Assembly (NCBI GenBank): GCA_038893995.1
Contig: JAWAQK010000007.1
Location: 1 to 57,314, forward strand
Length of the DNA stretch: 57,314 bases
Direction: 5' to 3'
Source: Candidatus Thorarchaeota archaeon
GTDB lineage: Archaea > Asgardarchaeota > Thorarchaeia > Thorarchaeales > Thorarchaeaceae
A program made the position numbers and the translations under genes. Of the stretch, positions 3,934-47,529 are shown piece after piece. Within the stretch, counting starts at the first letter, position 1, and each line of letters begins with the position of its first letter. The notes below the pieces were generated by a model. It was not told where the DNA came from, ran no database searches, and saw only the letters and a list, made by a program, of their open reading frames with translations.

Positions 3934-4497
3934 TCATCCACGAATTATCTCAAGCAGCTCTGCCAGCCTCTTCCGGACATCGCTCTCTAGACTGCGTAGC
4001 TCTGCGAGTCTTCGGATGTGTTCGATATGCTGCTTGCGATACTCAGAGTCGGACAAGGTCCCGTTTCTGCGTTTCAACTCAAGTTGGTCCATTTCCGCAT
4101 TGATGCTGTCCCTCTGTTGAATGATGAGGTCGAATCCCTGCTTGAGCCCCATCCACTCGACCATGGCATTGGCCTTTTCCTGTTCAATTCTCTCTCGGCG
4201 AAGCCTCTCCTCCTCCTTCAATGCGATCTTGACGTTTGCAGCCCTTATCTCTCTCTGAATCTCCTGGAGTCTTGCTTCTACCTCTCTCTTGACTTGAATG
4301 AGCTCTGTTGACCTATGCCACATGTCCCGATAGCGCTCCATGTACTCGCTATCGGATATCCCTCCTGCGTTGTGCAGCCTGTCTAGGTCCGCGAGTTCTC
4401 CTTGGATCTCGGCCAGCCTTCTCTTGACCTCCTCATAAGACTCTCGTAACGCGGTCCATTCGACAGTGTACTCCGATAGTATAAGCCTAGGATCCAT
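3934..4497 (-). CDS. Coiled-coil protein with two SHOCT/CdvA-like helical-hairpin repeats
   Basis: Repeats LHNAGGISDSEY and KRRNGTLSDSEY within a charged heptad sequence; probable start MDPRL. Confidence 0.7.
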   Translation of the reverse strand: MDPRLILSEYTVEWTALRESYEEVKRRLAEIQGELADLDRLHNAGGISDSEYMERYRDMWHRSTELIQVKREVEARLQEIQREIRAANVKIALKEEERLRRERIEQEKANAMVEWMGLKQGFDLIIQQRDSINAEMDQLELKRRNGTLSDSEYRKQHIEHIRRLAELRSLESDVRKRLAELLEIIRG

Positions 4498-18290: not shown

Positions 18291-19076
18291 TCATGTCGTA
18301 CATCTGGCGCGCGCCCTGGCCACGAGCGCTGCAAATGCCCCCGCTCCTATGCCATTGCCGATGTTCACGACAGCGAGACCTGGTGAACATGATTGCAACA
18401 TCGATGTGAGGGCGCCAACTCCCTCTCCCCCAAATCCATACCCGGTAGGTGAAGGAAGCCCAATCACAGGAACATCAACGAGAGCGGTCACAACAGCTGG
18501 CAGTGCTCCCTCCATCCCCGCGACAACTATGACTGCCGCCACATCATCGTCCCTCAGTCTTCTTATAGGCTCTAGGAGTCTGTGGATTCCTGCTACCCCC
18601 ACATCGTGAAACATCACCGACTCCACTCCCATGACGCGGGCCACTGCTGCTGCCTCCTCGGCGAGTGGAACGTCAGATGTTCCAGCAGTGATGATGGCGA
18701 TCTTGCCTATCGGCGTTGGAAGCGTCCATTCTGTCTTCCAGGCAAGTATCGTAAGGTGCTCTCCTCTACCGGAGACCCTGAAGAAGCAGTGCGGTAACGC
18801 CTCTCTCAGAGTCTTCTCATGCGACTCCTTTGCTCGCGCGACCAGAGCGAATCCGTTGATGGAGACCATGGCCCTCACTATCTCCAAAACCTCGCTGTCA
18901 TCCTTGTGTTGTGCAAACACTACCTCTGGAATTCCCTTCCTACCATGCCTGCCAAGATCCACGGAAGCAAAGTCGCCGACGATGGCAACTGAGTAGTCCC
19001 TTATCGTCTTCTCGACTTCGTCTATTGAGATCTTACCATTGACTAGGTCCTCGAGCAACATCCTCAGGTCGCGCAT
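18291..19076 (-). CDS. larB: Nickel-pincer cofactor biosynthesis protein LarB (PurE-like)
   Basis: RKGIPEVVF, TAGTSDVPLAEEA, DVGVAGIHRL, AGMEGALP, GYG, MLQSCSPG, VVNIGNG. Confidence 0.9.
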   Translation of the reverse strand: MRDLRMLLEDLVNGKISIDEVEKTIRDYSVAIVGDFASVDLGRHGRKGIPEVVFAQHKDDSEVLEIVRAMVSINGFALVARAKESHEKTLREALPHCFFRVSGRGEHLTILAWKTEWTLPTPIGKIAIITAGTSDVPLAEEAAAVARVMGVESVMFHDVGVAGIHRLLEPIRRLRDDDVAAVIVVAGMEGALPAVVTALVDVPVIGLPSPTGYGFGGEGVGALTSMLQSCSPGLAVVNIGNGIGAGAFAALVARARARCTT

Positions 19077-19148
19077 TGATCCTCAGCCAAGACAGCTGTT
19101 GGAAAACCTTAAAGTTGATTCTGTTCCCCGGCTGACTGCTATTGGAGT

Positions 19149-19655
19149 GTGGCCCTCTTGCACTGGTTGATGACATTCGCATCTCCCATACTGTATGGTC
19201 TACCAATTCCTGTAGTCATTTCCCTTCTCTCCGGTAAGCGCCATTCGAGTCGTACAGAGACAACACTCAAAGAGGCTCTGAAAATACTCAATCAGATCAA
19301 GAGAGGAAAGACTCCATCAGTACCCCAGTTTCCGTCACGCAGGGACCTCTACATGTCCCTGTTTCTGTCTAGGATGGCGGAGGCGGGAATTACCCCCTCT
19401 ACCTCAGTCGGAGCAGGTCTGGCGGTACCCGTCACGAAACTGGCCGAGTACCTGCGAAGCATTGGAATTGAGCCGAGTGTGATCGAGGCTCTCGAAACCG
19501 GAGTGGAGGAGGCCACCTCTGAGGATGAGGTTGACATAATAGTTGAGGCATCCTCTGGAACTGCCTCACTGCAACTTACCGAGGAACAGGTCAAGACAGT
19601 GAAGGGGCTGGCTAGGGAGAGTTGGAAGCGAAGTCATGGCGGGTCGGGAGGGTGA
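19149..19655 (+). CDS. Single-TM hypothetical protein similar to the TM and cytoplasmic tail of the 4209-aa surface protein
   Basis: YGLPI...LL, LNQIKRGKTP, SRRDLYMSLF and AVPVTKLAEYL align with the giant protein tail; TATA-like ccttaaag near 19107. Confidence 0.7.
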   Translation: MALLHWLMTFASPILYGLPIPVVISLLSGKRHSSRTETTLKEALKILNQIKRGKTPSVPQFPSRRDLYMSLFLSRMAEAGITPSTSVGAGLAVPVTKLAEYLRSIGIEPSVIEALETGVEEATSEDEVDIIVEASSGTASLQLTEEQVKTVKGLARESWKRSHGGSGG

Positions 19656-20385
19656 TCATTTGACAGAGCTTCTTCATATGAGAGACAACTACTTGCGTGA
19701 GTTCGATGCGACAGTCAAACAAGTAGGCGCGAACTATGTCGTGCTCGATCGCACTGCTTTCTACCCGGAAGGAGGCGGCCAGGTCGGCGATCGAGGAGAG
19801 CTCCTGTCAGAGAGATTGAGAGCAGTTGTGATTGACACCAAGAAGGCAGAGGGTACAGTGCGACATATCATAGCCGATGAGAATCGTTTCAGTCCAGGGA
19901 TGGCCGTACATGGGTCTCTGGACTGGAGTTGGCGGTACCAGTGCATGAGGTACCACACCGCTCAGCATGTGCTATCGAGGCTTCTTCAGTTGACATTTGG
20001 TCTAGAAACAGTTGGGAACCATGTTGCGCCTGGAGAGTCGAGAGCTGACTTCAGTCCAGTCAACGACATAAGTGACGTGATGCGCAAGGAGATCGAGGAT
20101 GGTGTCAACGAGATCTTCTCAGAGGGACTACCTGTCGAGATTCGGTTCATGCCTCGAGAGGAGGCCACGACATTTCTCCATGAGATGGGCTATCAGACCC
20201 GGTATCTCGAGATGGTGCCTAAAGAGGTGTCAGAGTTCAGAGTAGTTCAGATTGGAAACTGGGACGCATCTTCGTGTGCAGGTACCCATGTGGCGAACAC
20301 CAGGGAGGTCGGCCGGCTTAGCATATTGCGCACCAAGAACGTGGGTGCCCAGAAACAGAGGATATACTTCACGCTCTACGAGTGA
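19636..20385 (+). CDS. alaX: Alanyl-tRNA editing protein AlaX-M
   Basis: TAFYPEGGGQVGDRG, HTAQH and CAGTH zinc-binding editing motifs. Confidence 0.92.
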   Translation: MAGREGDHLTELLHMRDNYLREFDATVKQVGANYVVLDRTAFYPEGGGQVGDRGELLSERLRAVVIDTKKAEGTVRHIIADENRFSPGMAVHGSLDWSWRYQCMRYHTAQHVLSRLLQLTFGLETVGNHVAPGESRADFSPVNDISDVMRKEIEDGVNEIFSEGLPVEIRFMPREEATTFLHEMGYQTRYLEMVPKEVSEFRVVQIGNWDASSCAGTHVANTREVGRLSILRTKNVGAQKQRIYFTLYE

Positions 20386-34027: not shown

Positions 34028-37000
34028 GTGATTAGTCAGGGGATGCTTAGAAGGTTGTCCGTGAAGAAGTATTCTGTGCTGCCATTACTAGTGGTATTCA
34101 TGTTTGTGATACCGCTCCCGGGTCCCACGACCAACATGGTGCCCAGCGATGAGACGTCCACAGGCTGGGACTTGCCTCGAGACTTTTCCGTCGCTGACTA
34201 TTCAGTGGGACAGTCAGGCACTGGTCAATCCCTCCCGGTCTTTCTTACGGGGACTCTGGTCAATCGGTACGATTCAGTGTTTGAGATTTCCTCAACATCC
34301 CCCGGCACCACGACGATCTCCCTCGACACGGGATGGACCGGGAGTCGTCTCGTCACCAGAGTTCGAGGAATGTCCACATGGCGTACCGACGATCTTCTGA
34401 ACGGCCAGCTTGACTCATATCACTCTGAGAAGTTTATAGTAAGCGGTTACTCTCAGAGCTCCACATCTGTCTCTGTCCCGAACTCCTGGACCCTGGGCAA
34501 GCAGGCCTCCTTTGGCAGCGCCCTGAACAGGTTTCACCCGGCCTATGGCATCTGGCGTTTCTCGTCTTCGTCCGGAGCAGGATATGGGGGTACGATGGGT
34601 TGGAGGTTCCAGGCATCCTGGTCCGCATCGGACTACCTTGCCAGTACAGACCGTATATACATGGGGCAGCTGGTCAACGTCCCTTACAGGGAGCTCTATG
34701 GTACAACCATATCTCTACAGTATAGGATCCCGACATCCCCTGTCTCGAATATGAACGACCAGGTCTACCTCTTCGTGTCCTTTGCAGGCTACGAGGCAAA
34801 GCTGAGGATATTCGAGCCATCGGATCCCGTGGGGTCGTGGATAGCAGAGACGGTCACCATTCCTTCGGCATACCTCTCTAGCATCAGTATGCCAAACGCA
34901 CTACTACTCCAGGTAGGTCTGGGGACAGACCTCTCAGGAACGCAGTCCACAGCCCAGAATGCCTATGTCTTTGTTGACAACATCGAGTTGCGATTGAATG
35001 TCCGACCCTTCCCTGAACAGCTGGGTCTGAAGGCGAATGGTACCAGTGTGGTCGGTTCAGAATGGGGCTCGACCTATCAATATCTGACGGGATCTGGTCG
35101 TGATTGCTATGACGACCCGTACTATGGTCTTGATCTGGATGGTGTTGACTGGTGGTCCTCCTCAGGTATCAACACGGTGTCCCTATACAGTGATGGCGGT
35201 TCGAACGACTGGGCCAATGCACAGATCTACCGGTCGGGCCTCCAGTTTCCGCTTCAGATCCCCAGAGGCGCGGTGATACTCAGAGCCTATCTCGAGCTAT
35301 ATCCCACAGAGTCTGTGGACCCACCTGCAATGAGGATATACGTGGCTGGAAAGACCTCCTCGGGGCAGAGTGTTTCTCCGTTCACCACGGGCACTCCTCA
35401 CCTTAAGGACCGCTTCATGTGGTCATCAACAGGGGTCGACTGGACGCCGTTGAGATGGAACACAGAAGGTGACGAGTCCTATGGTTATCAGATCATTCAG
35501 CGAAGTCCTGACTTAGCGCCCCTCGTCCAGAGCGTCGTTTCTGATGGTGGGTGGACAAGTGGACAGTATATCTGCATCATGCTCGACTACATGAACTCGG
35601 CGACAACACAGTCATACAACAATTTCGCTGGAAGCTACGGTCTCTCCCCGCCTGTAGTACCAAGATTGATGGTGGAGTATCTTGTACCACTTCCGGACGA
35701 CGAGGTATATGTCCGTCAGTATAGGAAGGATCTCGTCATTGACCACAACAAGGTCGCCGCAGACCTGACCTACTTCCCGGTGATGGTCGATATCACCGAT
35801 GCTGACCTGCGAACTAAGGCACAGGCCGATGGCGATGACATAGCATTCAGCATGGGCAATATCGGCCTTGATCATGAGATAGAGTACTACGACTCCTCGA
35901 CAGGGCGACTCGTGGCATGGGTCCTGGTCCCATATCTTTCCTCGACTGTCGATACTGTCATCTCAATGCAGTATGGTAATCCGTATGCCCGGCGGAGCGT
36001 GTGCAGGTCGATGTGGCGAGACTACGCCCTCGTCATGCACATGAGTGACGATCCGTCTGGTGTACTATACGACAGTTCTCCCTACCGCCATTATGGGACA
36101 TCCTATGGCTCCATGAGTGGCGGAAGCCTCGTACCAGGAAAGGCAGATGGTGCAATCCGTTTCGACGGTGTGGACGATCGGATCTCTGTTGGTCAGATCA
36201 ATACTGATTCCTGGTCGAAGGTCACTTTCAGTGCGTGGGTATACCATGATGACACAGGTGATGACAGAGTCTTCTCGAAGGCATTTAGCACAAGTCCGAG
36301 CTATCACATCATGGCCACACAGTTGGCAGGGACCACCTACAGGGTCAGGTTGTGGACTGACGGGACCAACGGGCAATCTGCCACTCATGATTTTGGCACA
36401 GTCACCAGTGGTCAGTGGCATTACATCTCATGGACCTGGGACTCTTCCACCGGGCTGATCACCGCATACCTCAATGGAAACCAACTAGGCTCCGCTCAGT
36501 CACACACAGGTGCCACAGTGAGGGACTCTGTGGAGATGTTCATCATTGGAGACAACAGCCTTGCGACCGATCCCAGCCACCAACGGTTTCTCGCTGGACG
36601 AGTTGATGAAATCAGGTTGAGACCACAGTCACTCAGCGCTGCCTGGTTCTGGACTGAGTATCAGAATCAGAATAGTCCCTCCACTTTCATGTCCGTCGGT
36701 AGTGAACGCGTGAACCCGTTGTCATGGGTGAATGAGAGTGTTGTGAAGATGACCTTTAGCACGAGTTCTCAGGAACCCGTGGCAATGGACGTTCAGATGC
36801 TCATGAGCATCGAGGGAGAAGGTCGAAGTCTGGATGAGAACTTTGAGGAGGGAACCTCCTTCTATGTCGCCAATGCGTCAATCGTGGAGTGGACTGCCAA
36901 GATACTGGTCTCACCGCCCCCGGAAACCAACAACCTGGAGGTACGTGTGGCATTTCCGCAACAGGAATGGCGACCTACGAAGGTCACTAACCCATTAGGA

Positions 37001-40000
37001 GCAGTGAAGACCCTCGGGACCCAGTGGTACTATGAGGGCGGAGAAGTGGTTGTCCCCGACGGACAGGTTGATGTCTTTGGAGTCTGGACCATCAATTTCG
37101 TCAGCATGAACTACATATTGACACTGGACGTAGGGCCCCCTGGAGGTCCATACGGAACTACGGCGAACTTCAGCCTGGGCCAGACAATGAGATTTCGGAT
37201 GACAGTTCCATGGATCACGGGCGCACGACAGGGTCTAATTCTCACTGATCCGACGGGAACAGTCCAGTGGGAGAGCTATACCACCTCTACAGGGTCTCCA
37301 GCACATCTCTACCCGTCATTTCGGTACCGAAAAACGATCACCATCTCTAGCTCGAAGGTCTATGCAGATCTGACCAACTTCCCTGTCCTGATCGACATAC
37401 TCGATTCGGACCTGCGCAACCCATCGAAAGTACAGCCTGACGGCGATGATATTCTCTTTGTCCAGAACGGTAAGGTGTTGGCTCATGAGCTGGAGTTGTT
37501 CGTGCAGGACTACGATGCCACTCACGCGAGGCTGGTCGCATGGGTCCGTGCGAATCTGTCAGCCACCGCAGACACAGTGCTGACAATGTACTACGGTAAT
37601 CCCATACTTGGTCCTCAGTCCAATCCCAAGGCGGTCTGGAGCAATGCTTACGACGCAGTGTGGCATCTTGGTGAGATTGCGATCGACGAACAGACCACAG
37701 CAACCCACGTCGATTCAACTGGCCACGGATACTACGGCAACCAGTATGGTAACGCCAATACGACGCTGAGTAACGGAAAGATACTTCGTGGTCAGATATT
37801 TGACGGCGTCAATGACCTGATATCGGTATCTGCCTCACTCGGTCTCGCTCCGTCAGGGAACGTGGCACTGTCTGGATGGTTCTATCTGCCAACGACTTTC
37901 TCGAGCAGTTCACCCACATCCTATCTTCTGATGTCCAAGTATCAGAGCGTTGACTACAACATGCACCTCATGCTTGTTGGAAATGACTATCTTCAGGGGT
38001 CTGTCGCCAAGGGCTCATTGGTCTTCAAGATGGAAACTCAGCCGGCCGGTGCGAGATATATGTACACGACCAGGTCCTCGTGGGCCGCTGGCTGGTATCA
38101 CTACACGATCCTCCTTAACTCGACCGATATGTCGCGCAATGCTATCTACATCAACGGTCTTCAGGAGTCTACTCTTACCGTCCTCAGTGCTACAACTGGT
38201 TCCCTATCCTTCTCCGGCACGTGGGGAATCGGAGGCGGGTACGTTGACTATGGTCAGATTTCAGGTGGGGCCTCGTTTCTGAATGGCCGGATGGACGAGG
38301 TCCGTGTCTCATCAACAATTCGCTCCGCAGGGTGGATTCGAACAGAGTATGAGAGCCAGAGCAACCCGAGTGCATTCTATACAGTTGGAAGTGAGCAGAC
38401 CAGAGAGGACCTGGCTCCCTACATTGACAAGACCGTCACGAGCTCATATCCTGCTGGCGTCTGGACCGTCAGTGCATACTACAACGACACCGGCACTGGA
38501 GTGGACACGAGGACAGGCCTCTACGAGAGAAAGTTCATCATCAAGAGGGCTACTAGCCTCTCTCTGATAGCGCCTGGAGACGCTGTCGGCGATGGCGTGT
38601 CAACACGCGTCGTCGGACAGGGCCTGTATATCGAAGTCCGACTGAGAGACTCGGGAAACTTGGCTTCGATACCGGGTGCCACCGTGCGAATGAACTGGAC
38701 CGTGTCTGGTTCACCATCCATCAGGACAATGAATGACTATGGGGATGGCAGATATGGTATAGCGCTGAATACTACTGACCTGAGTCTCAACACAAGATGG
38801 CGCATCAACATCTGGTCCAGGCATGACTACTATCAGGATACAAGCATGTATTTCTTCCTGGATCTGTCCCATAACACACAGCTCACATACGCATGGGTTT
38901 CTACGACCCCTGTGGGATTCGACTTCAGGGCCTCTCTGTACTTCAGGGATGCATACACGGGGGCTCCAGTGACCGGTGCCACCATCAAGTTCTCAAACGG
39001 CACACCTGTAAGTGTTGTTGCACAGGGCGGTGGATGGTACAACATCTCTATCCCAACGACTGGCATGTCGCCCGGAGATTACTCGTTCACCTTCGTTGCA
39101 TCAAAGTCGGGAGCCTACCTCGAGTCTGCAAGTGTAGATGTGACCTTTACGCTGAGACGTCATTACACCGCCCTCTCTGTGTCCGGCGATCTTGTCACCC
39201 CGCAGGGATTCACGACTGCAGTCACTGTTTCAGTGATTGATCTTGATACTGGGACCCCAGTCCCTCTGGGCTCTACCAGCTCCCTCCTGTTCACGTGGAG
39301 TGGGGGATCTCATAACGTCCAGCCCGTCACCACCTACCAGATCACATTGCCAACAGGCAGCTGGAATATCGGAACTGTGGATGTGGTCCTGACAGCCGTG
39401 TTGTCCTCCACATACTATAACCCCGACGGATATACCTTCCAGATCCAGATCCGCAAGCACTACACGGCTGTGACTGCAATAGGGTCGTTCGTCTATCCGT
39501 ATGGGAATATGACACCCGTGACGCTCAAGATAGTTGACCTGGATACTGGAACAACTCTCGCAGCCAGTACGGTCAGCTCGATCTCCTTCACATGGAGTGG
39601 GGGATCATACAGTCCATCGCCCCCATATTCCAGTCTCTCATTCGTGCTGGACTCGAGCAGCTGGGCGGTGGGCTCAAAGATCGTCACAGTCTCTGTCGTC
39701 ATGGGTAGCATCTACTTTAGCCCAGACAATCATCAGTTCACGGTCACGATAGTGAGTATGCGGACTGTCCTGTACCACGAGCCCAGTGATCTGCTGTTCC
39801 CACGGTTTGACGACTTTGTCATCGTCCTGCGTGTCAACGTATCCGAACCCGGGCCATACTATGGTTCGCCCATCACAGGACTCTCGCAGACTCATTTCTC
39901 GCTGAGCGCGTATGCGATCAAGAGTCTCACGAATCTTGGGGATGGCCGATACCGGCTCACAATCGATCAGTCCTACTTCACTCAGGGTACTTACATTGTC

Positions 40001-43000
40001 ACAGTCACAGTCAATCCGACAGACAGCAGGTACGCGTCTGCCCTCCTGCAGATAGTGTTCCAGTATAGGCCGGCTGAGAGCCTCCTCTCGTCACCCAACT
40101 ATCCTCTTGTCATAACTCCGGTCCTGAGGGACGTAGTCATCACACTGAACTATACCGACCTGGACCGGTCCACTGGCATCACTACTGCCGTCATAACTGC
40201 ACAGGGCGTGTCAATATACGACCAGCAGAACCTTGGCAATGGACTTTACCGTGTCACGGTGAATGTGCAGAGCCTCTCGGTCGGTGAATATGTCTTCAAC
40301 CTGACTGCAACTGCATCAGGCTATGTGTCGAAGACCCTCACGTTCAACCTCCGGGTGCGGGTGGCATATACGTACGCCATCCCAACAGTCGGAGCGCTGG
40401 ACATCCCTGTCGGCAATGACCCAGTATTCTATGTGGACTACTATGACACAGACAATAGTGTTCCAATCTCAGGGGCCAGCGTCGCCTCGACATGGTCGAA
40501 AATCTCAGTGACCTACCTGCCGGCTCAGGGTCGATATCAGGTGACCTTCATCACTGACGACACAGACCCATTGGTCTCCAACATGGCAGTCGAATTCGAA
40601 TTCACGAAGGGATCAAACTATCAGCCTGGTGTGTTCTCCATCTCCGTCACAATACGCACACACAGGACGGAGTTCCGACTTGTCAGTGCCATTGAACCAA
40701 CCCCGTACAACAGTGACATCCAGATTCCTGTATACTACGGTGATATCGACAACAATGTGGGCATCAATGAGATGTACGTCTATTGCTACGTCAGGAACGC
40801 GACACATCTGGTCACTTCGCAACTGACGACCGGTGGTCAGGCCGGCTTCTTCATCGTCAAGGTACCTGCGGCCCAGTTCGGAGGACCAAAGCTTGTGGCC
40901 CTCACTGTGTACTTCAACTGGACTGGGCCATCTGTGAAATACTACAACATGTCCATCAGTGTGACTGCCAACGTGGTTGGTGAGGACTCTCGCTATACAC
41001 TCCTATTGGCCTCAGAGCCCACCCCCTACGGCTACAACATGTCGTACGTGTTCCTATACTCCGATCTGTCAGGCAGTGGCATTACCAACTCCACTGGCGG
41101 AGTCCACATATACGTCAAGTTTGACAGGACCGTCAATCTCAACCTGGTCACGATCAGAGAGGTCAATCGTGTCGGCCAGCCGGGTGTATACTCCATCTCG
41201 TTCAACAACGAGATCCTCGGCGGGGTCGGCCTCGTCTACATGCAGGTCTACATCAACTGGACAGGCGGTGCCCCGTTCTACACCAACAGACAGGACACAG
41301 TATCAGTCCGTGTACAGCCACGTGACACACTCCTCTCAGTGATGCCCCCCGTACCAACTCCTCGCGGCGAGAATGCGTCCTTTGTCTTCACGCTTGACGA
41401 TATTACGGGTGCCGGCTCCGTCCCGGTAGAGTACGACCCCGCTCACATGTTCATCACGTTGAGTATTTCGAGCTACAGCCTGACATACAATTCACAGACG
41501 CGAGAGTTCACTGTATCCTTCAATACGGCCCAGAGTCCCATCGGTGATGCTCCGTTAGGACAGAAGTCCTTCAATATCAGCGTGATCTGGACTGGAGCTC
41601 CGTTCTACGCAAACCACACAGGCCGCATCATGTATGTGTCTGTGACAGCACGACTGACCGTCCTCGACTACCAGTCTCCATCACCGACTCCATTTGGCGA
41701 TGTCTGTACATTCTTCGTCGTATGGACTGACGTCACCTCCAGTCCCGTAGGCGTTGATGGGGCCACCGTCGCGCTTTACGACGGCGGAAGTCTGATACCG
41801 GGCTCCTACTATACGGTGACAGGCATGGGTGGAGGTTCATACAAGATTGAACTTGACACAGACTATTATTCCTCTCCAGGATCCAAGACATTGCGGGTGT
41901 CGCTTTCGGCGACCGTGTTCTACATCCTTGATGTGTCCGCCACGCGGAACCTCCTGGTCCAACAGCGACTGAGCCTCGTGTCGTCTGAGCCACCTGCCAG
42001 AGTTCCCTACGGTCTCCCCATTCACATCGTCGTGTACTATCAGGACCGGTTCACACTGTCAAACATCGGCAATTCGACTGGGAAGGTCAGATTCTCCATA
42101 CTCAATGGATCGTCTTGGTACTACACTATTGAGTGGAAGGAGAGCTTTGGCTACTACGTACTGACGGTCGAGACCAGCAACCATCCGGAGCTACTCATTG
42201 ACGTCCCCTATTACCTTCATGTGATGATGTCCTATGCAGACGAGGCACCATTCTATGCCTCCGACGACGCCTACATCGAGTTCAGGCTTCGGCTGAGGGT
42301 GACCGCACTAGAACTTGTGACAGCCCCTACCCCTACCCCCTACCAGGACTACGTGAGCTTCATCGTGCTCTACAGGGATATTGACACCGGAGATGGTGTG
42401 GATGGTGCAACGATATCCCTCAAGAAAGGCGCAGTGACACTGGTATACGGAACTCACTACACGCTAGTTGCTGGTCCATCTGGAACCTGGACCGTGATTG
42501 TCTCGACAACGGCATTGGACGGCCTAGGCAAGACCACCGTCACGGTTGCTGCGAGCCGCGCTGGTGTACCATACAGGGCAAATGCAACGCTGAACGTGTC
42601 CCTGGATGTCACTAGGCGTCCAACGACCATCGACGTCATAAGTGCCACTCCGTCTGCACGGTACAACGACAACATAGTCATCGTGTTTGCGTACGTTGAT
42701 ACCGGGACATCCACATACGTTGGCGGCATCACGGACAAGGTGATGCTCTTTCGCTACAGCACCCTCATACCATCGGGCCAGTATTCACTGGTGGCCGGGT
42801 CAGTCCCGAACACACTTGTACTGACGGTCAGCACAAGTGTGCTGTCATCCGTGCTCGTCAATGGACTACCACTAACGATCAAGGTCTACTGGCTTGACGT
42901 CATTCCATACTACAACAATGCTAGCCTGACCCTGCCGGTCAATATAATCAATAGAGCTGGCATGCTCAGCCACGATCCAGTAGAGAGCACACCTTTAGGC

Positions 43001-46000
43001 GACCAGATGCAGATCAGATTCTACTATGTCGATGCCGATACTGGCGTCAGCATTGCAGACGCGATAGTACTCCTCGACTGCGTTCAGAAGCCGGGTCTTC
43101 AGCAGGGTACGGACTATACCATAACATATCTCAGTGGCGTCTATACTATTCTGGTGGACACCAACAGACTCAACGGAATTGGATCGTACACGTTTCTATT
43201 GACGATCCAGTGGAACCCATCCACCCCACCATTCTATTCCAACCAGACAACGAGGTCAATCCCCGGTTCTGTCCGTCTTGTTGCTGCAAACCTAGAGGTT
43301 GGGCTACCGTCACCGATATCGGTCCCATTCTATGCCAACGTCACATTCGACATGACGTTCACAGACCAGGACCACATGACTCCGATACTTGGTCTGACAG
43401 CCGGCAGCGTTAGTATCAAGTACAAGCACTCGAACCAACCTCCGCTCCTGTGGAGTTTTCGGAGTCTGGGTGGTGGCGTGTATAGAATCACGGTCAACGT
43501 GACCACAGAGGTCACCATAGGTGTCAGGACTCTCGCCATCACGGTCAACATGTATCCTTACGTGGAGCTGGAGAGACAGGTATCTTTCCAGGTGAGAAAC
43601 CGTCTCTGTGCGATATCTCTGGTGTCCATGCCTGAGAGCATTTACGCGGGAGACCCCGTACGGCTATTCCTGAACGTCACTGACGAGGACGCAGGTGGTT
43701 CGCTGGTCTCGGGCGCCAGCTTTGTACTTGTCTGGGACAATCCTCCGGGACCACCGATTGAGGTCTCATATGGTATCTATCAGGTTGACCTAGTCACCAT
43801 CGGCATGAGTTACGGGCTGAGACAACTGACGATCTCAGCCTCCAAGACAGGATATGAAACTGCGTACGTCGCCATCACAATAAACCTCTTGCCGATCACC
43901 ACTGATCTGGTCATCAGCGGGGATCTGGTTGGCCCCTACTACTGGGGCGATACACTAACAGTCTACGCATACTTCAACGACACAGTGCACGGGACCGGCA
44001 TAGAGGGTATTGCTGACGTCAGCTTCACATGGGGAGGTCTGCCCTACGTCTCTCTGACCGAACTGGGGTCTGGCAACTTCTCGGCATTCCTCGACACCTC
44101 GCTGGTATCAGCCACTACAGTCACGGTCATCATCCAGGCCCGCGCTCCCAACTACCTCACTGCAAGTGCCAGCTTCCTGCTGAGCATCCTGCCGAGGCCG
44201 GTGAGTCTGTCCTCTGTCGGAAGCCCGACGATGACTGTTCCAAGAGGCTCTAAGGCACAACTCACAGTGTATCTCACCGACCTAAAGACCGGCAATCCAC
44301 TGACGACTGCAACGATTGTCGCTAGCTGGAACTTTGAGGGAGTGCCTGGAACAGCCCAGTTTGTGAGTCGTGGCGGCGGGTACTATGATGCACTAGTCGA
44401 CACAGGTACGACAAAGGCAGATCAGGTGTACCAGATACTCGTCACATCGACTCTGGCAAACTATCAGACGGCGTCGACATCATTCCAGATATATACGACA
44501 CAGACGCGTACCTTTGTGATCCTGGACTCCCAGACTAAGACCTACGAGGAGAGGGCATTTGCATGGTCTGAGGTCATCAGGATCGGTGTGTACGTACTTG
44601 CCCTCGACCTCAATCAGACTGATCCCGATTACATCCAGTGGAACTCTACAGTCCGGCTGGAATATGAAACTCTTCAGTTCTACATGATGCGCAATGGGAC
44701 GACTGGTCACTTCTACTTCGACTTCAATACTACGCTATTCGATACAGGTACCTACGCGTTCCGTATCATTGCAACCCCTGCGAACCGCTCTTTCGCACAG
44801 TCCAGCAACAGGACAGTCATAACAGTATTCAAGGTTCAGACAAGCGTGATACCTCCGAGTGCAGACTCCCCCTACTGGGGAGTGTCGAAGTGGTATAACT
44901 TCACATACTTTGATGTTGTACGGAACCAGCCTATCGCGAACGACAGTTACAACCTGCCCGTAATCGCCAGATACAGATGGGCGGGCCACGAGGGTCTTGC
45001 GACCTACTTCGGGAATGGTGTCTACGGTGTGTTTGTCAATACCTCTCTTCTGACCGCAGGCCAACTATACATCCTCACCATCTCGTTTGAGAAACGGAAC
45101 TTTGAGTCTCGTGAGGGTCGTGTGGAGATAACCGTCCGAAGGGTCCCGACTGAGATTGTTGTCATATCTCCGTTCCAGAACCAGGTGGACGGAAACCCAC
45201 GTGTGTTGCAGGTACCCATCGGCGATGTAATCGATATCCTCTTCCTGTTCAACGACACTGACAACTCTGAGGGCTACGTCGGTGGGCTCAACGGCGCCAC
45301 ACTGAACATGGCCACTCGACTCAGTGGTCCCAACATCGACGTACCCCTGACGATGGAAGACATAGTACTGGAGCCACTTGGAAATGGTCTCTACAGATTC
45401 GTGTTTGACACCAGGACCAAACTGTTCGGTCTAGTCAGTAAGGAACCATTCCGACTTACAATAGGTCTCTCTCTTCCCAACAGAGAAGATGCAGTCGTTC
45501 TGGTCCTGGTGACAGTCATCAAGATCCCGACTGAGCTTGTCGTCACCCAGCCCATCCCCTCATGGACAGTGATGAACGGCGAGACCCAACGCATAGTGTT
45601 CTACTACAACGACACTTGGCACAACAGAGGCATTGCTGGAGCCACGTTCAATGCCACGAGTAGTAGCAGCTCCGTATTCGTAGTGAACTACGGCGAACTT
45701 GGCGGAGGGTACTACTATGTTGACGTAGTGACGGGCGGTATCAGACTAGCAGAGAGTTCGGCATTTGTCATAGTGACTGTCACGCTCGAGGATTATGCAG
45801 ACCGCTCCATGACGCTGGTCGTGACTGTTACCCAAAACCCGACCGACACCATGTTCACTACGGGACTGCAGTATGGTCTCCCCATCGCTCTGATAGGACT
45901 TCTCCTCACGGTCGGCTACGTGAAGATCTGGAGCGTGCCCAAGCGGCTGCGCCAGATAAACAAGCTGATCAGACAACTCAAGAAGAACAAGATTCCCAAG

Positions 46001-46657
46001 CCCATCACTGACGTAAGGAGCCGAAGCCAGATACTGGCTGACCTGTTCGCAGATACCTTCTCTGAACTGTCACTGACACGGACAGCGGAACAGATGCCGG
46101 CAGAGTCCGTACCAGTCGATATTCCTGAGCTTGGCGAGCTTCTAATGCAGCTCTCCATCCTGACGAGACTGGGTCCTCAGGAGCTCGATGACTTCAAGGC
46201 CGACATATCCAAGATGAAGCTGAGCGAGCAGGCAACCTTCATGAAAGAAGTCATAAACCAGGAGGCCATTCGTGCAGCTCGGCGGGAGGGCAAGAGCGTC
46301 GAGCAGGTCCTCGAGGAAGTGAGGTCTGAGGCCCGGAAACGCCTTGGAGAACGTGTGGAGCGTGAGCGGATCGAGGAGATTGAAGAAGAGGGTATTATCA
46401 TTCCTCAGAAACCAACAGAACCCACAATTCCCACGAGACCTGGTGTGAGAGCACCCCCGACGACTCCTGCCACTGGCGTCGAGCATGTTACTGCCGGACC
46501 TACAGAGAAACTCAGCCAGTTTGAACTCGAGGAGTTGAAGAAGGAACTCGAGGCAAAGGGAGTACCACTGCACGAGATTGACACAATCATAGAACAGGCC
46601 AAGAATCTGCCCAGAGAGCTTGTGGATGAACTGTTGCGAAGCATCGGAAAGAGATGA
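34028..46657 (+). CDS. Giant cell-surface glycoprotein: signal/anchor, 2x (DUF2341 + LamG), many Ig-like repeats, C-terminal TM and about 240-aa cytoplasmic tail
   Basis: Two YRK.I.I...KV.ADLT.FPV..DGDDI modules, each followed by LamG-like FDGV.D...W.H...GR.DE.R; repeated GxGxY/Ig-like units; many NxS/T sequons; TM YGLPIALIGLLLTVGYVKIW; start may be ATG 34043. Confidence 0.9.
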   Translation: MISQGMLRRLSVKKYSVLPLLVVFMFVIPLPGPTTNMVPSDETSTGWDLPRDFSVADYSVGQSGTGQSLPVFLTGTLVNRYDSVFEISSTSPGTTTISLDTGWTGSRLVTRVRGMSTWRTDDLLNGQLDSYHSEKFIVSGYSQSSTSVSVPNSWTLGKQASFGSALNRFHPAYGIWRFSSSSGAGYGGTMGWRFQASWSASDYLASTDRIYMGQLVNVPYRELYGTTISLQYRIPTSPVSNMNDQVYLFVSFAGYEAKLRIFEPSDPVGSWIAETVTIPSAYLSSISMPNALLLQVGLGTDLSGTQSTAQNAYVFVDNIELRLNVRPFPEQLGLKANGTSVVGSEWGSTYQYLTGSGRDCYDDPYYGLDLDGVDWWSSSGINTVSLYSDGGSNDWANAQIYRSGLQFPLQIPRGAVILRAYLELYPTESVDPPAMRIYVAGKTSSGQSVSPFTTGTPHLKDRFMWSSTGVDWTPLRWNTEGDESYGYQIIQRSPDLAPLVQSVVSDGGWTSGQYICIMLDYMNSATTQSYNNFAGSYGLSPPVVPRLMVEYLVPLPDDEVYVRQYRKDLVIDHNKVAADLTYFPVMVDITDADLRTKAQADGDDIAFSMGNIGLDHEIEYYDSSTGRLVAWVLVPYLSSTVDTVISMQYGNPYARRSVCRSMWRDYALVMHMSDDPSGVLYDSSPYRHYGTSYGSMSGGSLVPGKADGAIRFDGVDDRISVGQINTDSWSKVTFSAWVYHDDTGDDRVFSKAFSTSPSYHIMATQLAGTTYRVRLWTDGTNGQSATHDFGTVTSGQWHYISWTWDSSTGLITAYLNGNQLGSAQSHTGATVRDSVEMFIIGDNSLATDPSHQRFLAGRVDEIRLRPQSLSAAWFWTEYQNQNSPSTFMSVGSERVNPLSWVNESVVKMTFSTSSQEPVAMDVQMLMSIEGEGRSLDENFEEGTSFYVANASIVEWTAKILVSPPPETNNLEVRVAFPQQEWRPTKVTNPLGAVKTLGTQWYYEGGEVVVPDGQVDVFGVWTINFVSMNYILTLDVGPPGGPYGTTANFSLGQTMRFRMTVPWITGARQGLILTDPTGTVQWESYTTSTGSPAHLYPSFRYRKTITISSSKVYADLTNFPVLIDILDSDLRNPSKVQPDGDDILFVQNGKVLAHELELFVQDYDATHARLVAWVRANLSATADTVLTMYYGNPILGPQSNPKAVWSNAYDAVWHLGEIAIDEQTTATHVDSTGHGYYGNQYGNANTTLSNGKILRGQIFDGVNDLISVSASLGLAPSGNVALSGWFYLPTTFSSSSPTSYLLMSKYQSVDYNMHLMLVGNDYLQGSVAKGSLVFKMETQPAGARYMYTTRSSWAAGWYHYTILLNSTDMSRNAIYINGLQESTLTVLSATTGSLSFSGTWGIGGGYVDYGQISGGASFLNGRMDEVRVSSTIRSAGWIRTEYESQSNPSAFYTVGSEQTREDLAPYIDKTVTSSYPAGVWTVSAYYNDTGTGVDTRTGLYERKFIIKRATSLSLIAPGDAVGDGVSTRVVGQGLYIEVRLRDSGNLASIPGATVRMNWTVSGSPSIRTMNDYGDGRYGIALNTTDLSLNTRWRINIWSRHDYYQDTSMYFFLDLSHNTQLTYAWVSTTPVGFDFRASLYFRDAYTGAPVTGATIKFSNGTPVSVVAQGGGWYNISIPTTGMSPGDYSFTFVASKSGAYLESASVDVTFTLRRHYTALSVSGDLVTPQGFTTAVTVSVIDLDTGTPVPLGSTSSLLFTWSGGSHNVQPVTTYQITLPTGSWNIGTVDVVLTAVLSSTYYNPDGYTFQIQIRKHYTAVTAIGSFVYPYGNMTPVTLKIVDLDTGTTLAASTVSSISFTWSGGSYSPSPPYSSLSFVLDSSSWAVGSKIVTVSVVMGSIYFSPDNHQFTVTIVSMRTVLYHEPSDLLFPRFDDFVIVLRVNVSEPGPYYGSPITGLSQTHFSLSAYAIKSLTNLGDGRYRLTIDQSYFTQGTYIVTVTVNPTDSRYASALLQIVFQYRPAESLLSSPNYPLVITPVLRDVVITLNYTDLDRSTGITTAVITAQGVSIYDQQNLGNGLYRVTVNVQSLSVGEYVFNLTATASGYVSKTLTFNLRVRVAYTYAIPTVGALDIPVGNDPVFYVDYYDTDNSVPISGASVASTWSKISVTYLPAQGRYQVTFITDDTDPLVSNMAVEFEFTKGSNYQPGVFSISVTIRTHRTEFRLVSAIEPTPYNSDIQIPVYYGDIDNNVGINEMYVYCYVRNATHLVTSQLTTGGQAGFFIVKVPAAQFGGPKLVALTVYFNWTGPSVKYYNMSISVTANVVGEDSRYTLLLASEPTPYGYNMSYVFLYSDLSGSGITNSTGGVHIYVKFDRTVNLNLVTIREVNRVGQPGVYSISFNNEILGGVGLVYMQVYINWTGGAPFYTNRQDTVSVRVQPRDTLLSVMPPVPTPRGENASFVFTLDDITGAGSVPVEYDPAHMFITLSISSYSLTYNSQTREFTVSFNTAQSPIGDAPLGQKSFNISVIWTGAPFYANHTGRIMYVSVTARLTVLDYQSPSPTPFGDVCTFFVVWTDVTSSPVGVDGATVALYDGGSLIPGSYYTVTGMGGGSYKIELDTDYYSSPGSKTLRVSLSATVFYILDVSATRNLLVQQRLSLVSSEPPARVPYGLPIHIVVYYQDRFTLSNIGNSTGKVRFSILNGSSWYYTIEWKESFGYYVLTVETSNHPELLIDVPYYLHVMMSYADEAPFYASDDAYIEFRLRLRVTALELVTAPTPTPYQDYVSFIVLYRDIDTGDGVDGATISLKKGAVTLVYGTHYTLVAGPSGTWTVIVSTTALDGLGKTTVTVAASRAGVPYRANATLNVSLDVTRRPTTIDVISATPSARYNDNIVIVFAYVDTGTSTYVGGITDKVMLFRYSTLIPSGQYSLVAGSVPNTLVLTVSTSVLSSVLVNGLPLTIKVYWLDVIPYYNNASLTLPVNIINRAGMLSHDPVESTPLGDQMQIRFYYVDADTGVSIADAIVLLDCVQKPGLQQGTDYTITYLSGVYTILVDTNRLNGIGSYTFLLTIQWNPSTPPFYSNQTTRSIPGSVRLVAANLEVGLPSPISVPFYANVTFDMTFTDQDHMTPILGLTAGSVSIKYKHSNQPPLLWSFRSLGGGVYRITVNVTTEVTIGVRTLAITVNMYPYVELERQVSFQVRNRLCAISLVSMPESIYAGDPVRLFLNVTDEDAGGSLVSGASFVLVWDNPPGPPIEVSYGIYQVDLVTIGMSYGLRQLTISASKTGYETAYVAITINLLPITTDLVISGDLVGPYYWGDTLTVYAYFNDTVHGTGIEGIADVSFTWGGLPYVSLTELGSGNFSAFLDTSLVSATTVTVIIQARAPNYLTASASFLLSILPRPVSLSSVGSPTMTVPRGSKAQLTVYLTDLKTGNPLTTATIVASWNFEGVPGTAQFVSRGGGYYDALVDTGTTKADQVYQILVTSTLANYQTASTSFQIYTTQTRTFVILDSQTKTYEERAFAWSEVIRIGVYVLALDLNQTDPDYIQWNSTVRLEYETLQFYMMRNGTTGHFYFDFNTTLFDTGTYAFRIIATPANRSFAQSSNRTVITVFKVQTSVIPPSADSPYWGVSKWYNFTYFDVVRNQPIANDSYNLPVIARYRWAGHEGLATYFGNGVYGVFVNTSLLTAGQLYILTISFEKRNFESREGRVEITVRRVPTEIVVISPFQNQVDGNPRVLQVPIGDVIDILFLFNDTDNSEGYVGGLNGATLNMATRLSGPNIDVPLTMEDIVLEPLGNGLYRFVFDTRTKLFGLVSKEPFRLTIGLSLPNREDAVVLVLVTVIKIPTELVVTQPIPSWTVMNGETQRIVFYYNDTWHNRGIAGATFNATSSSSSVFVVNYGELGGGYYYVDVVTGGIRLAESSAFVIVTVTLEDYADRSMTLVVTVTQNPTDTMFTTGLQYGLPIALIGLLLTVGYVKIWSVPKRLRQINKLIRQLKKNKIPKPITDVRSRSQILADLFADTFSELSLTRTAEQMPAESVPVDIPELGELLMQLSILTRLGPQELDDFKADISKMKLSEQATFMKEVINQEAIRAARREGKSVEQVLEEVRSEARKRLGERVERERIEEIEEEGIIIPQKPTEPTIPTRPGVRAPPTTPATGVEHVTAGPTEKLSQFELEELKKELEAKGVPLHEIDTIIEQAKNLPRELVDELLRSIGKR

Positions 46658-46751
46658 GGGAACGGAGACGGGGACCTCTCCGCACTCCGTTTCCTCAACT
46701 CGAAGGTGGTACGGTCCAACACGGATCATATACCGGGGGGTAGTACCTTCG
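46655..46751. terminator. Double hairpin between convergent giant-protein and RadA-like genes
   Basis: 13-bp stem 46655-46667/46685-46697 and 7-bp stem 46701-46707/46745-46751. Confidence 0.45.
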
Positions 46752-46779
46752 CGTGGTCCCCCAACACCCCCCACTATCA

Positions 46780-47529
46780 TCAGATGTCAAGGAAGTCAGA
46801 CAGGGGTGGCGTCAAGTCTAGGTAAGATTCCCTAGGCCTTGATGAACGTTTCACCGGATACTGAGGATGCTTGGTCAGTGTGTATCTGATGTATGACTTC
46901 AGGCTCTCGACGCATATATGCACTTGAGCACTGCTTGCAAGCGCTCTTCCACCGGCTGGCGTGAATATGTCTCCTCTGCTGGAGGGCGCAGAGACCAGCG
47001 TGACGATCCCATGCCGCATGGTAAATGTGGATATCTTCCGTGCCATCTGGGTCATCTGTTGTGCATGTCTCACGTTGACGCCCTCCGAGATGAATAGGTC
47101 TGGAAACCCCGACACTATCAACAGTCGCGCTCTGATTCTACTGAAGAACTCCTCCAACTCATCCATTATCAGGACAAATACCTGAGATGAGTTGAAGGCG
47201 CGCGAGACATATATCCTTCTAATCACCTCTTCAGGTTCGAGTCCCAGCTCAATGGCATATTCGGCCAACCTACATGACCTGAGAATGTTTACACTATCTA
47301 TAACTACTGTTGGGCTCTGGAGACCCCCCTCTTGCTGAGGACGCTGAACGCTGACTGCAATGCGCAGCAGATCATCATGCAGTTGTGAGTCCCCGTAGAA
47401 TAGGTATGTGAGTCCGACCTCCAGCCCCCCACCGAGTAGGTCGTCCAGTGCCTCAGTACCTGTCTTGACGATCTGTCGTCGTATCGTGTCTGCTGTAGTA
47501 AACTCTGAAAGTTGCGTGCGGGATGTCAT
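46780..47529 (-). CDS. RadA/Rad51 paralog with degenerate ATPase motifs
   Basis: TGTEALDDLLGGG, VQRPQQEGGL, VIDS, IYVSRAFN, GGRAL; no GKT; Walker B reads LLIVSG. Confidence 0.85.
   Translation of the reverse strand: MTSRTQLSEFTTADTIRRQIVKTGTEALDDLLGGGLEVGLTYLFYGDSQLHDDLLRIAVSVQRPQQEGGLQSPTVVIDSVNILRSCRLAEYAIELGLEPEEVIRRIYVSRAFNSSQVFVLIMDELEEFFSRIRARLLIVSGFPDLFISEGVNVRHAQQMTQMARKISTFTMRHGIVTLVSAPSSRGDIFTPAGGRALASSAQVHICVESLKSYIRYTLTKHPQYPVKRSSRPRESYLDLTPPLSDFLDI

Follow-up and report, generated by a model that had tools for sequence, protein, structure and literature searches.

Why would a genome that encodes a giant surface protein also carry a free-standing gene for little more than that protein's membrane anchor and inner tail? 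The question is raised by a 168-aa frame at positions 19149-19655 (+) of the window (the whole 57,314-nucleotide stretch of Candidatus Thorarchaeota archaeon DNA, from an Asgard metagenome-assembled genome, that we analysed), which the initial annotation described as an ectodomain-less "mini" homolog of the transmembrane (TM) segment and cytoplasmic tail of a 4209-aa protein encoded at 34028-46657 (+). We refer to the two as mini and the giant. The giant consists of a signal/anchor, two DUF2341 and two Laminin_G_3 domains, a long beta-rich stalk with 48 N-x-S/T sequons, a single C-terminal TM segment (residues 3950-3968; 45875-45931, +; Kyte-Doolittle 1.74) and a tail of about 240 aa. An alignment of 24 giant tails reveals a conserved G-x-P at the outer end of the TM segment. 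Orthologues 2000-5900 aa in length share 50-62% identity in the tail, which also exists in several more distant copies per genome. Two features of the tail-coding region deserve mention in their own right. The tail (window 45815-46654) contains an internal repeat, L-S/G-x-x-E-L-D/E-x-F/L-K, at tail residues 118-137 and 232-251 (hhalign E 5e-5 over 20 columns). Opposite the 3' end of the giant gene, and overlapping it, is a 212-aa ORF (46142-46780, -), most probably a shadow ORF of the tail-coding sequence, which is strongly conserved.

The mini frame, as given by the list of open reading frames and its translation, begins with GTG, and two later starts are available: a TTG at 19158, which yields the 165-aa form found on the window's own record, and an ATG at 19170, which yields 161 aa. 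Roughly 35 nt 5' of the first possible start lies a TATA/BRE-like element (AAAACCTTAAAGT, 19103-19115, +) that we take as a putative promoter. An AAAAC(C/T)TTAAAGT element can also be read from the sequence 5' of mini orthologs in other genomes. The protein has a single hydrophobic 19-aa window, which starts no more than about 8 residues from the N-terminus, and in this respect its description as ectodomain-less holds. This TM segment (residues 9-27; 19173-19229, +; Kyte-Doolittle 1.73 over 19 aa) has a proline near its outer end and lysine/arginine residues next to it. The K/R residues that follow the TM segment fit a predicted N-out/C-in orientation. Outside the membrane mini thus has only a very short stub, which leads into a single TM helix and about 140 residues in the cytoplasm.

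A comparison of mini with giant residues 3900-4209 by BLASTP returned E 8e-6 with 27% identity over 102 aa, in an alignment that spans the TM segment, a basic helix, an S-R helix and a V-P-V stretch and that covers four of the five motif pairs originally matched by eye. When the whole 2.33-Mb genome was searched in six frames with mini as the query, only mini itself and positions 45854-46159, inside the giant gene, were recovered. Because TM segments can inflate alignment scores, the test was repeated without them: Smith-Waterman alignment of mini 33-168 to the post-TM tail scored 67, compared with 34.5 +/- 6.0 for shuffled sequences (z 5.4; the score was reached in 1 of 2000 shuffles), and the best local match of mini's cytoplasmic part anywhere in the giant's 4209 aa fell at residues 3974-4097. 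The proposed colinearity with the giant from about position 45870 onward is therefore borne out by the BLASTP, TM-free and genome-wide results alike. Profile-profile comparison agrees with this. An alignment of 19 mini orthologs matched the 24 giant tails in hhalign with a probability of 97.3% and E 2e-11 over 65 columns (mini 39-104, giant 3973-4041), and the Viterbi path also takes in the TM segment with its conserved outer proline. As judged from these alignments, homology between mini and the giant is near certain over the TM segment and some 65-100 cytoplasmic residues.

Past this stretch the correspondence becomes looser. The fifth motif pair, GIEPSVIEALETGV / RLGPQELDDFKADI, falls outside the significant region; relaxed hhalign and MAFFT both place it colinearly, but it is not significant by itself. 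At a permissive threshold the hhalign alignment of mini and the giant remains colinear over 151 columns with low posterior probability, and mini proteins, Thorarchaeota giant tails and tails from other Asgard archaea are aligned colinearly by MAFFT. The C-terminal halves compared alone (mini 93-168, tail residues 100-195) show no similarity in hhalign (probability 0.9%). Mini 98-133 gives a weak match (E 2.9e-4, probability 40%) to the giant's terminal three-helix domain (tail residues 235-278; 46517-46648, +), which was delimited on the AF2 tail model, is conserved among the 24 tails, follows a disordered acidic/Pro linker and itself has weak RecX_HTH1-like matches. The AF2 models of mini and the giant tail (mean pLDDT 80.5 and 79.6) are both all-helical, with the same order of six helices and similar loop lengths. 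The giant's middle helical domain (invariant S-E...F..EVI.QE motif) is absent from mini, and helix order alone is common to the two models.

The homologous cytoplasmic stretch can be described as a juxtamembrane module, which occupies residues 39-104 of mini (19263-19460, +; boundaries from hhalign, AF2 helices at 36-51 and 64-78) and residues 3973-4041 of the giant (45944-46150, +). It begins with a basic amphipathic helix that ends in K/R-G-K, continues through a short proline-containing linker to a second helix capped by S/T-R, and closes with a G-x-P turn. The first helix has a hydrophobic stripe at i, i+3/4 and i+7 and prolongs the TM helix as modelled by AF2; together with the linker, it aligns between mini 39-56 and giant 3973-3990. 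The second helix and turn read SRRDLYMSLF...AGITP in mini and SRSQILADLF...LSLT in the giant. We built a profile of the shared region (46 sequences, 91 positions), in which the cap arginine of the second helix is present in at least 90% of rows. Within its own genome mini scores 79 bits against this profile (E 3.9e-22), a value that is partly circular since mini belongs to the profile. The giant's module is strongly basic, with 10 K/R versus 1 D/E in 32 residues. The best-conserved positions of the module (K-G-K, S-R) are polar, as would be expected of a contact surface.

Following the module, mini has a C-terminal four-helix domain of its own (residues 97-167; 19437-19649, +), which stands out in the conserved columns of the 19 orthologs and is modelled at pLDDT 94-97 over residues 100-160. 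This domain is specific to the mini family, ends in a conserved LAVEEW-K/R motif and, in profile comparison, does not match the giant's middle domain significantly.

We next consider whether mini is a genuine gene. Orthologs of 140-214 aa are present in 35 of the 36 family genomes of a first sample and 57 of the 59 of a second. Among the genomes sampled, no full-length ortholog was found outside the order Thorarchaeales; a sister family within the order has a mini-like ORF in a 198-aa frame with an AlaX-type alanyl-tRNA editing gene downstream. The ratio dN/dS is 0.12-0.19 for unsaturated pairs, indicating purifying selection. The window's copy diverges most within the family, sharing 25-34% identity with the remaining members in the alignment of 19 orthologs, and a word-based homologue search with the protein returned only a self-match. 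This divergence, the small size of the protein, its lack of a database name and its ambiguous start codon might suggest a decaying remnant, the truncated 3' end of a surface-protein gene or a chance ORF, with a likeness to the giant that stems from chance or TM composition. Such an account is already contradicted, and we assign it a very small probability: the match is significant without the TM segment, the gene sits at a fixed locus in 57/59 genomes under the selection just described, the AF2 model is confident (above all in the C-terminal domain), and mini proteins form their own, weakly supported, group on a tree. The mini gene is authentic, old, order-wide in Thorarchaeales and fixed 5' of AlaX. 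One genome encodes a second mini-like paralog (1535-2620, +; E 1.5e-44 against a mini profile) in a 362-aa frame with further hydrophobic segments and about 200 extra residues, adjoining a LarB-like remnant. It may be a duplicated, rearranged copy of the mini locus.

About 13 of the 57 orthologs, from several genera, lack the TM segment and begin instead with M-(P/S)-F-F-G followed by K/R. A split-off TM exon or TM-coding piece was looked for 5' of these genes and none was found. The TM-less orthologs thus indicate that the conserved core of the family is its cytoplasmic part and that membrane anchoring is not required in all members, though their hydrophobic-polybasic start might still bind the membrane peripherally.

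The only conserved neighbour of mini, and its presumed operon partner, is the AlaX gene (19636-20385, +; Pfam tRNA-synt_2c and tRNA_SAD), and a link between AlaX and surface proteins is not obvious. AlaX lies directly 3' of mini in 19/19 ortholog loci examined as well as in the sister family, and a LarB/AIRC-like gene is often found divergently 5' of mini in ortholog loci. In most orthologs AlaX starts 10-18 nt past the mini stop codon; the annotated frames in the window overlap by 20 nt. The window's AlaX frame opens at ATG 19636, and its orthologs start at what are residues 10-15 of the window's protein (M-T-E/D-L-L-H/Y-M), so the true start in the window may be an internal methionine near 19678. 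This adjacency and tight spacing could mean that mini acts with AlaX, for instance by tethering the tRNA-editing protein to the membrane or by regulating it, and that mini's likeness to the giant's tail reflects ancestry only. We regard such a role as improbable. Unrelated genes are often tightly ordered in archaea, mini has no meaningful likeness to tRNA- or synthetase-binding domains and, to our knowledge, AlaX homologues elsewhere function without such a partner. The adjacency also weighs little because synteny across Thorarchaeaceae extends over about 30 kb, as far as the giant gene and including it. In at least 12 genomes of at least 10 genera, mini and its best-matching giant are encoded on the same contig and strand, with mini 5' and 26-41 kb between them (26.7 kb in the window).

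On a tree built from 99 alignment columns, mini proteins, Thorarchaeota giants and other Asgard tails fall into separate groups with weak support (34/82 for mini monophyly). The other Asgard tails fit the mini profile better than the giant profile; one example scores E 6.6e-13 against the former and 1.5e-4 against the latter. The separate groups and the better fit to the mini profile together suggest that mini is an old, independent lineage of the module. From the same profile scores and weakly supported tree, we rejected the idea that mini arose recently as a truncated copy of the nearby giant. The best reading of these comparisons is that mini represents a tail-only paralog of Asgard surface proteins. 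Mini does not fit easily as a mere decoy for the giant, since it has its own well-conserved C-terminal helical domain and, on the weakly supported tree, is not nested among the Thorarchaeota giants.

The initial annotation had further proposed that giants and a stand-alone membrane protein share a conserved juxtamembrane module, and this reaches well beyond the pair in the window. A search of 1.84 billion cluster representatives with the shared-region profile retrieved 223 proteins at E <= 1e-3, of which 124 reached E <= 1e-10; every named match is an Asgard "hypothetical protein" from Thorarchaeota, Lokiarchaeota/Promethearchaeota or Jordarchaeales/Freyarchaeota. Many carriers are proteins of 500-6500 aa. 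Among the best 150 of the 223 matches, 38 are at most 230 aa and 28 at least 2000 aa; of the longer proteins, 93% have no more than 260 aa between the end of the module and the C-terminus. Wherever a carrier has a TM segment, the module follows it directly. We found the module in 137 of the 251 genomes of the phylum that were sampled and in about half of 28 families; it was not found in three of the sampled families (0/26, 0/16 and 0/10 genomes). Several large module proteins are encoded per genome across Thorarchaeaceae, and other Asgard lineages have the module in surface proteins of 500-1440 aa.

The window's genome has five carriers: mini, the giant, two large genes on contig 66 and a 2162-aa frame on contig 14. 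The contig 66 genes are arranged in tandem, one partial and one of 2581 aa, both with a TM segment and module, and their tails are of a shorter, more divergent type with 34-38% identity to the giant's tail. On contig 14, the TM segment and module lie at 19071-19364 within the 2162-aa frame. The ectodomains of carriers include DUF2341/LamG (as in the giant), Big_1, Invasin_D3 and CarboxypepD_reg, or none that is recognised. The distal tails also vary. The tail of Lokiarchaeota-type proteins consists almost wholly of the module's first half, and one tail from another lineage has an extra helix-hairpin-helix-like stretch (IEGVGDKVASQL...) after the module. The Lokiarchaeota protein TFF96824.1 (1031 aa) has the complete unit of ectodomain, TM segment and module in two consecutive copies; it may represent a pair of genes called as a single one.

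A comparison of the carriers sets mini apart from the longer forms. The tails of Thorarchaeota giants with DUF2341/LamG ectodomains resemble mini in having a TM segment with an outer proline, the module and later helices in the same order. Mini differs from them in lacking an ectodomain, the SEQAAFVKEVI-type middle domain, the acidic/Pro linker and a clear terminal three-helix domain, and in having instead its own C-terminal domain and a separate, weakly supported place on the tree. Surface proteins of 1000-1440 aa from other Asgard archaea (for example the Jordarchaeales MEM2830851.1 cluster and the Lokiarchaeota TFF96824.1) contain the same module followed by helix-G-h-S/P-helix units, whereas their ectodomains are Ig-like or of unknown type and their distal tails differ from mini. 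No tail-only form adjoining AlaX was seen outside Thorarchaeales in the genomes sampled.

We also compared the module with families and structures from outside the Asgard archaea. Neither mini nor the tail matches a family of Pfam-A or NCBIfam at the curated cut-off, and scans of the individual members of the mini and giant-tail alignments gave scattered sub-threshold matches. Foldseek searches of the PDB with both models returned nothing at E <= 0.001. VIA-align against 48,161 chains gave Z <= 7.0, to generic helical bundles and within the background range for helical models, while the ESM Atlas gave TM <= 0.38 by shape and <= 0.85 by language-model features, the latter being chance level. 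Two readings of the helix-G-V-P-helix units were dropped: a SHOCT-like one, with no SHOCT match at E <= 1, and a UBA-like one, for which a single UBA_9 match (E ~0.1) fell on a different stretch. A likeness to RecX_HTH1 (PF21982) appears below threshold in two of the 19 mini proteins, with E 0.0043 at best, and in seven of the 24 tails, with E 0.0021 at best, on helix-G-V/L-x-x-helix units that come after the module. Every such match is below the Pfam cut-off, and the fold searches returned no RecX structure or chain; at most, the likeness reflects a common small three-helix arrangement, and it does not point to a function.

An archaeal point of comparison is the PGF-CTERM/archaeosortase anchor, which likewise places a C-terminal TM segment followed by basic residues on large glycosylated surface proteins. 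In those proteins, however, the chain ends with the TM segment and a few basic residues and the anchor is cleaved off, whereas the module contributes to 60-260 conserved folded residues after the TM segment, with no PGF-type motif before it. About 240 residues lie past the giant's TM segment, that of mini is N-terminal, and no PGF-CTERM-type family appeared in the Pfam/NCBIfam scans of the tails. The literature searched holds no description of the module or of the tails of Asgard surface proteins. As far as these databases and this literature extend, the module is an Asgard domain family without prior description.

What might such a module do? The initial annotation had suggested a receptor/co-receptor, decoy or sorting/cytoskeleton-anchoring system; these would be conceivable roles, and neither the fold searches nor the gene neighbourhood gave a hint towards one of them. 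The module abuts the TM segment, starts with a basic amphipathic helix, has conserved polar residues and is joined to unrelated ectodomains and distal tails, and for these reasons we read it as a putative self-contained unit that lies against the inner membrane face. There it may dock a common cytoplasmic partner or lipid head-groups, or it may drive lateral association of its carriers. Mini, for its part, could use the module to reach the sites where surface-protein tails are found and there either present its own C-terminal domain or compete for a shared partner, which would make it an adaptor or regulator rather than an adhesin. Taken as a whole, the statement that mini is a tail-only paralog with a self-contained docking or oligomerisation module at the inner membrane face seems to us rather more probable than otherwise. 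Its components differ in strength: homology and the gene-family relationships are near certain, and the docking or oligomerisation role of the module is put forward tentatively, as a possibility to which we give clearly less than an even chance.

The main rival to a docking or oligomerisation role is that the module acts in biogenesis, as a topogenic signal composed of a stop-transfer/positive-inside element and a recognition helix for the machinery of insertion, glycosylation-coupled export or quality control that serves C-terminally anchored Asgard surface proteins. Mini would then have kept the module through its use of the same insertion route. A signal of this kind would fit several properties of the module, which always comes directly after the TM segment, is strongly basic in the giant (the 10 K/R versus 1 D/E noted above), forms nearly the whole tail of short-tailed Lokiarchaeota-type proteins and is joined to unrelated ectodomains. 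Yet the TM-less mini orthologs have nothing to insert and nonetheless retain the module under selection, and at roughly 65 conserved residues, among them a second helix and the G-x-P turn, it exceeds what a topogenic signal needs. The module is also missing from about half of the sampled Asgard families, and families without it presumably have anchored surface proteins as well. On balance we consider a topogenic role unlikely, while giving it more credence than any direct partnership of mini with AlaX.

For the module and its ectodomain-less carrier, the closest analogies so far described come from eukaryotes. Eukaryotic adhesion receptors contain juxtamembrane docking regions, as in the binding of p120-catenin by cadherin and the polybasic ERM-binding regions of CD44 and ICAM. 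A membrane-proximal segment can be common to eukaryotic receptors with differing ectodomains, and ectodomain-less paralogs exist, analogous to the module and mini. The eukaryotic regions and the module have no relationship in sequence or fold, and the parallel is an analogy and not functional evidence. A more specific extension would have the module couple Asgard surface proteins to actin-based, ESCRT or small-GTPase/longin machinery, with mini as a dedicated regulator or adaptor conserved across Thorarchaeales. We view this extension as a long shot, of scarcely greater probability than a role with AlaX. If true, it would represent an archaeal counterpart of the coupling between receptor tails and adaptors.

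What is new here is an undescribed Asgard domain family that forms a conserved tail on single-pass surface proteins, together with a tail-only paralog. The module is rare and restricted to Asgard archaea in all named cases, and it lies directly under the membrane on many large surface proteins. Mini offers a mostly soluble, conserved handle on it: about 140 residues that could be expressed for structure determination, lipid binding and partner fishing, work for which 4000-aa glycoproteins are impractical. No closer relatives of eukaryotes are known than the Asgard archaea. Should the carriers of the module have a common partner, its identity would reveal whether receptor-like transmembrane coupling is older than eukaryotes; even as nothing more than a biogenesis signal, the module would point to a way of anchoring surface proteins that is specific to this lineage.
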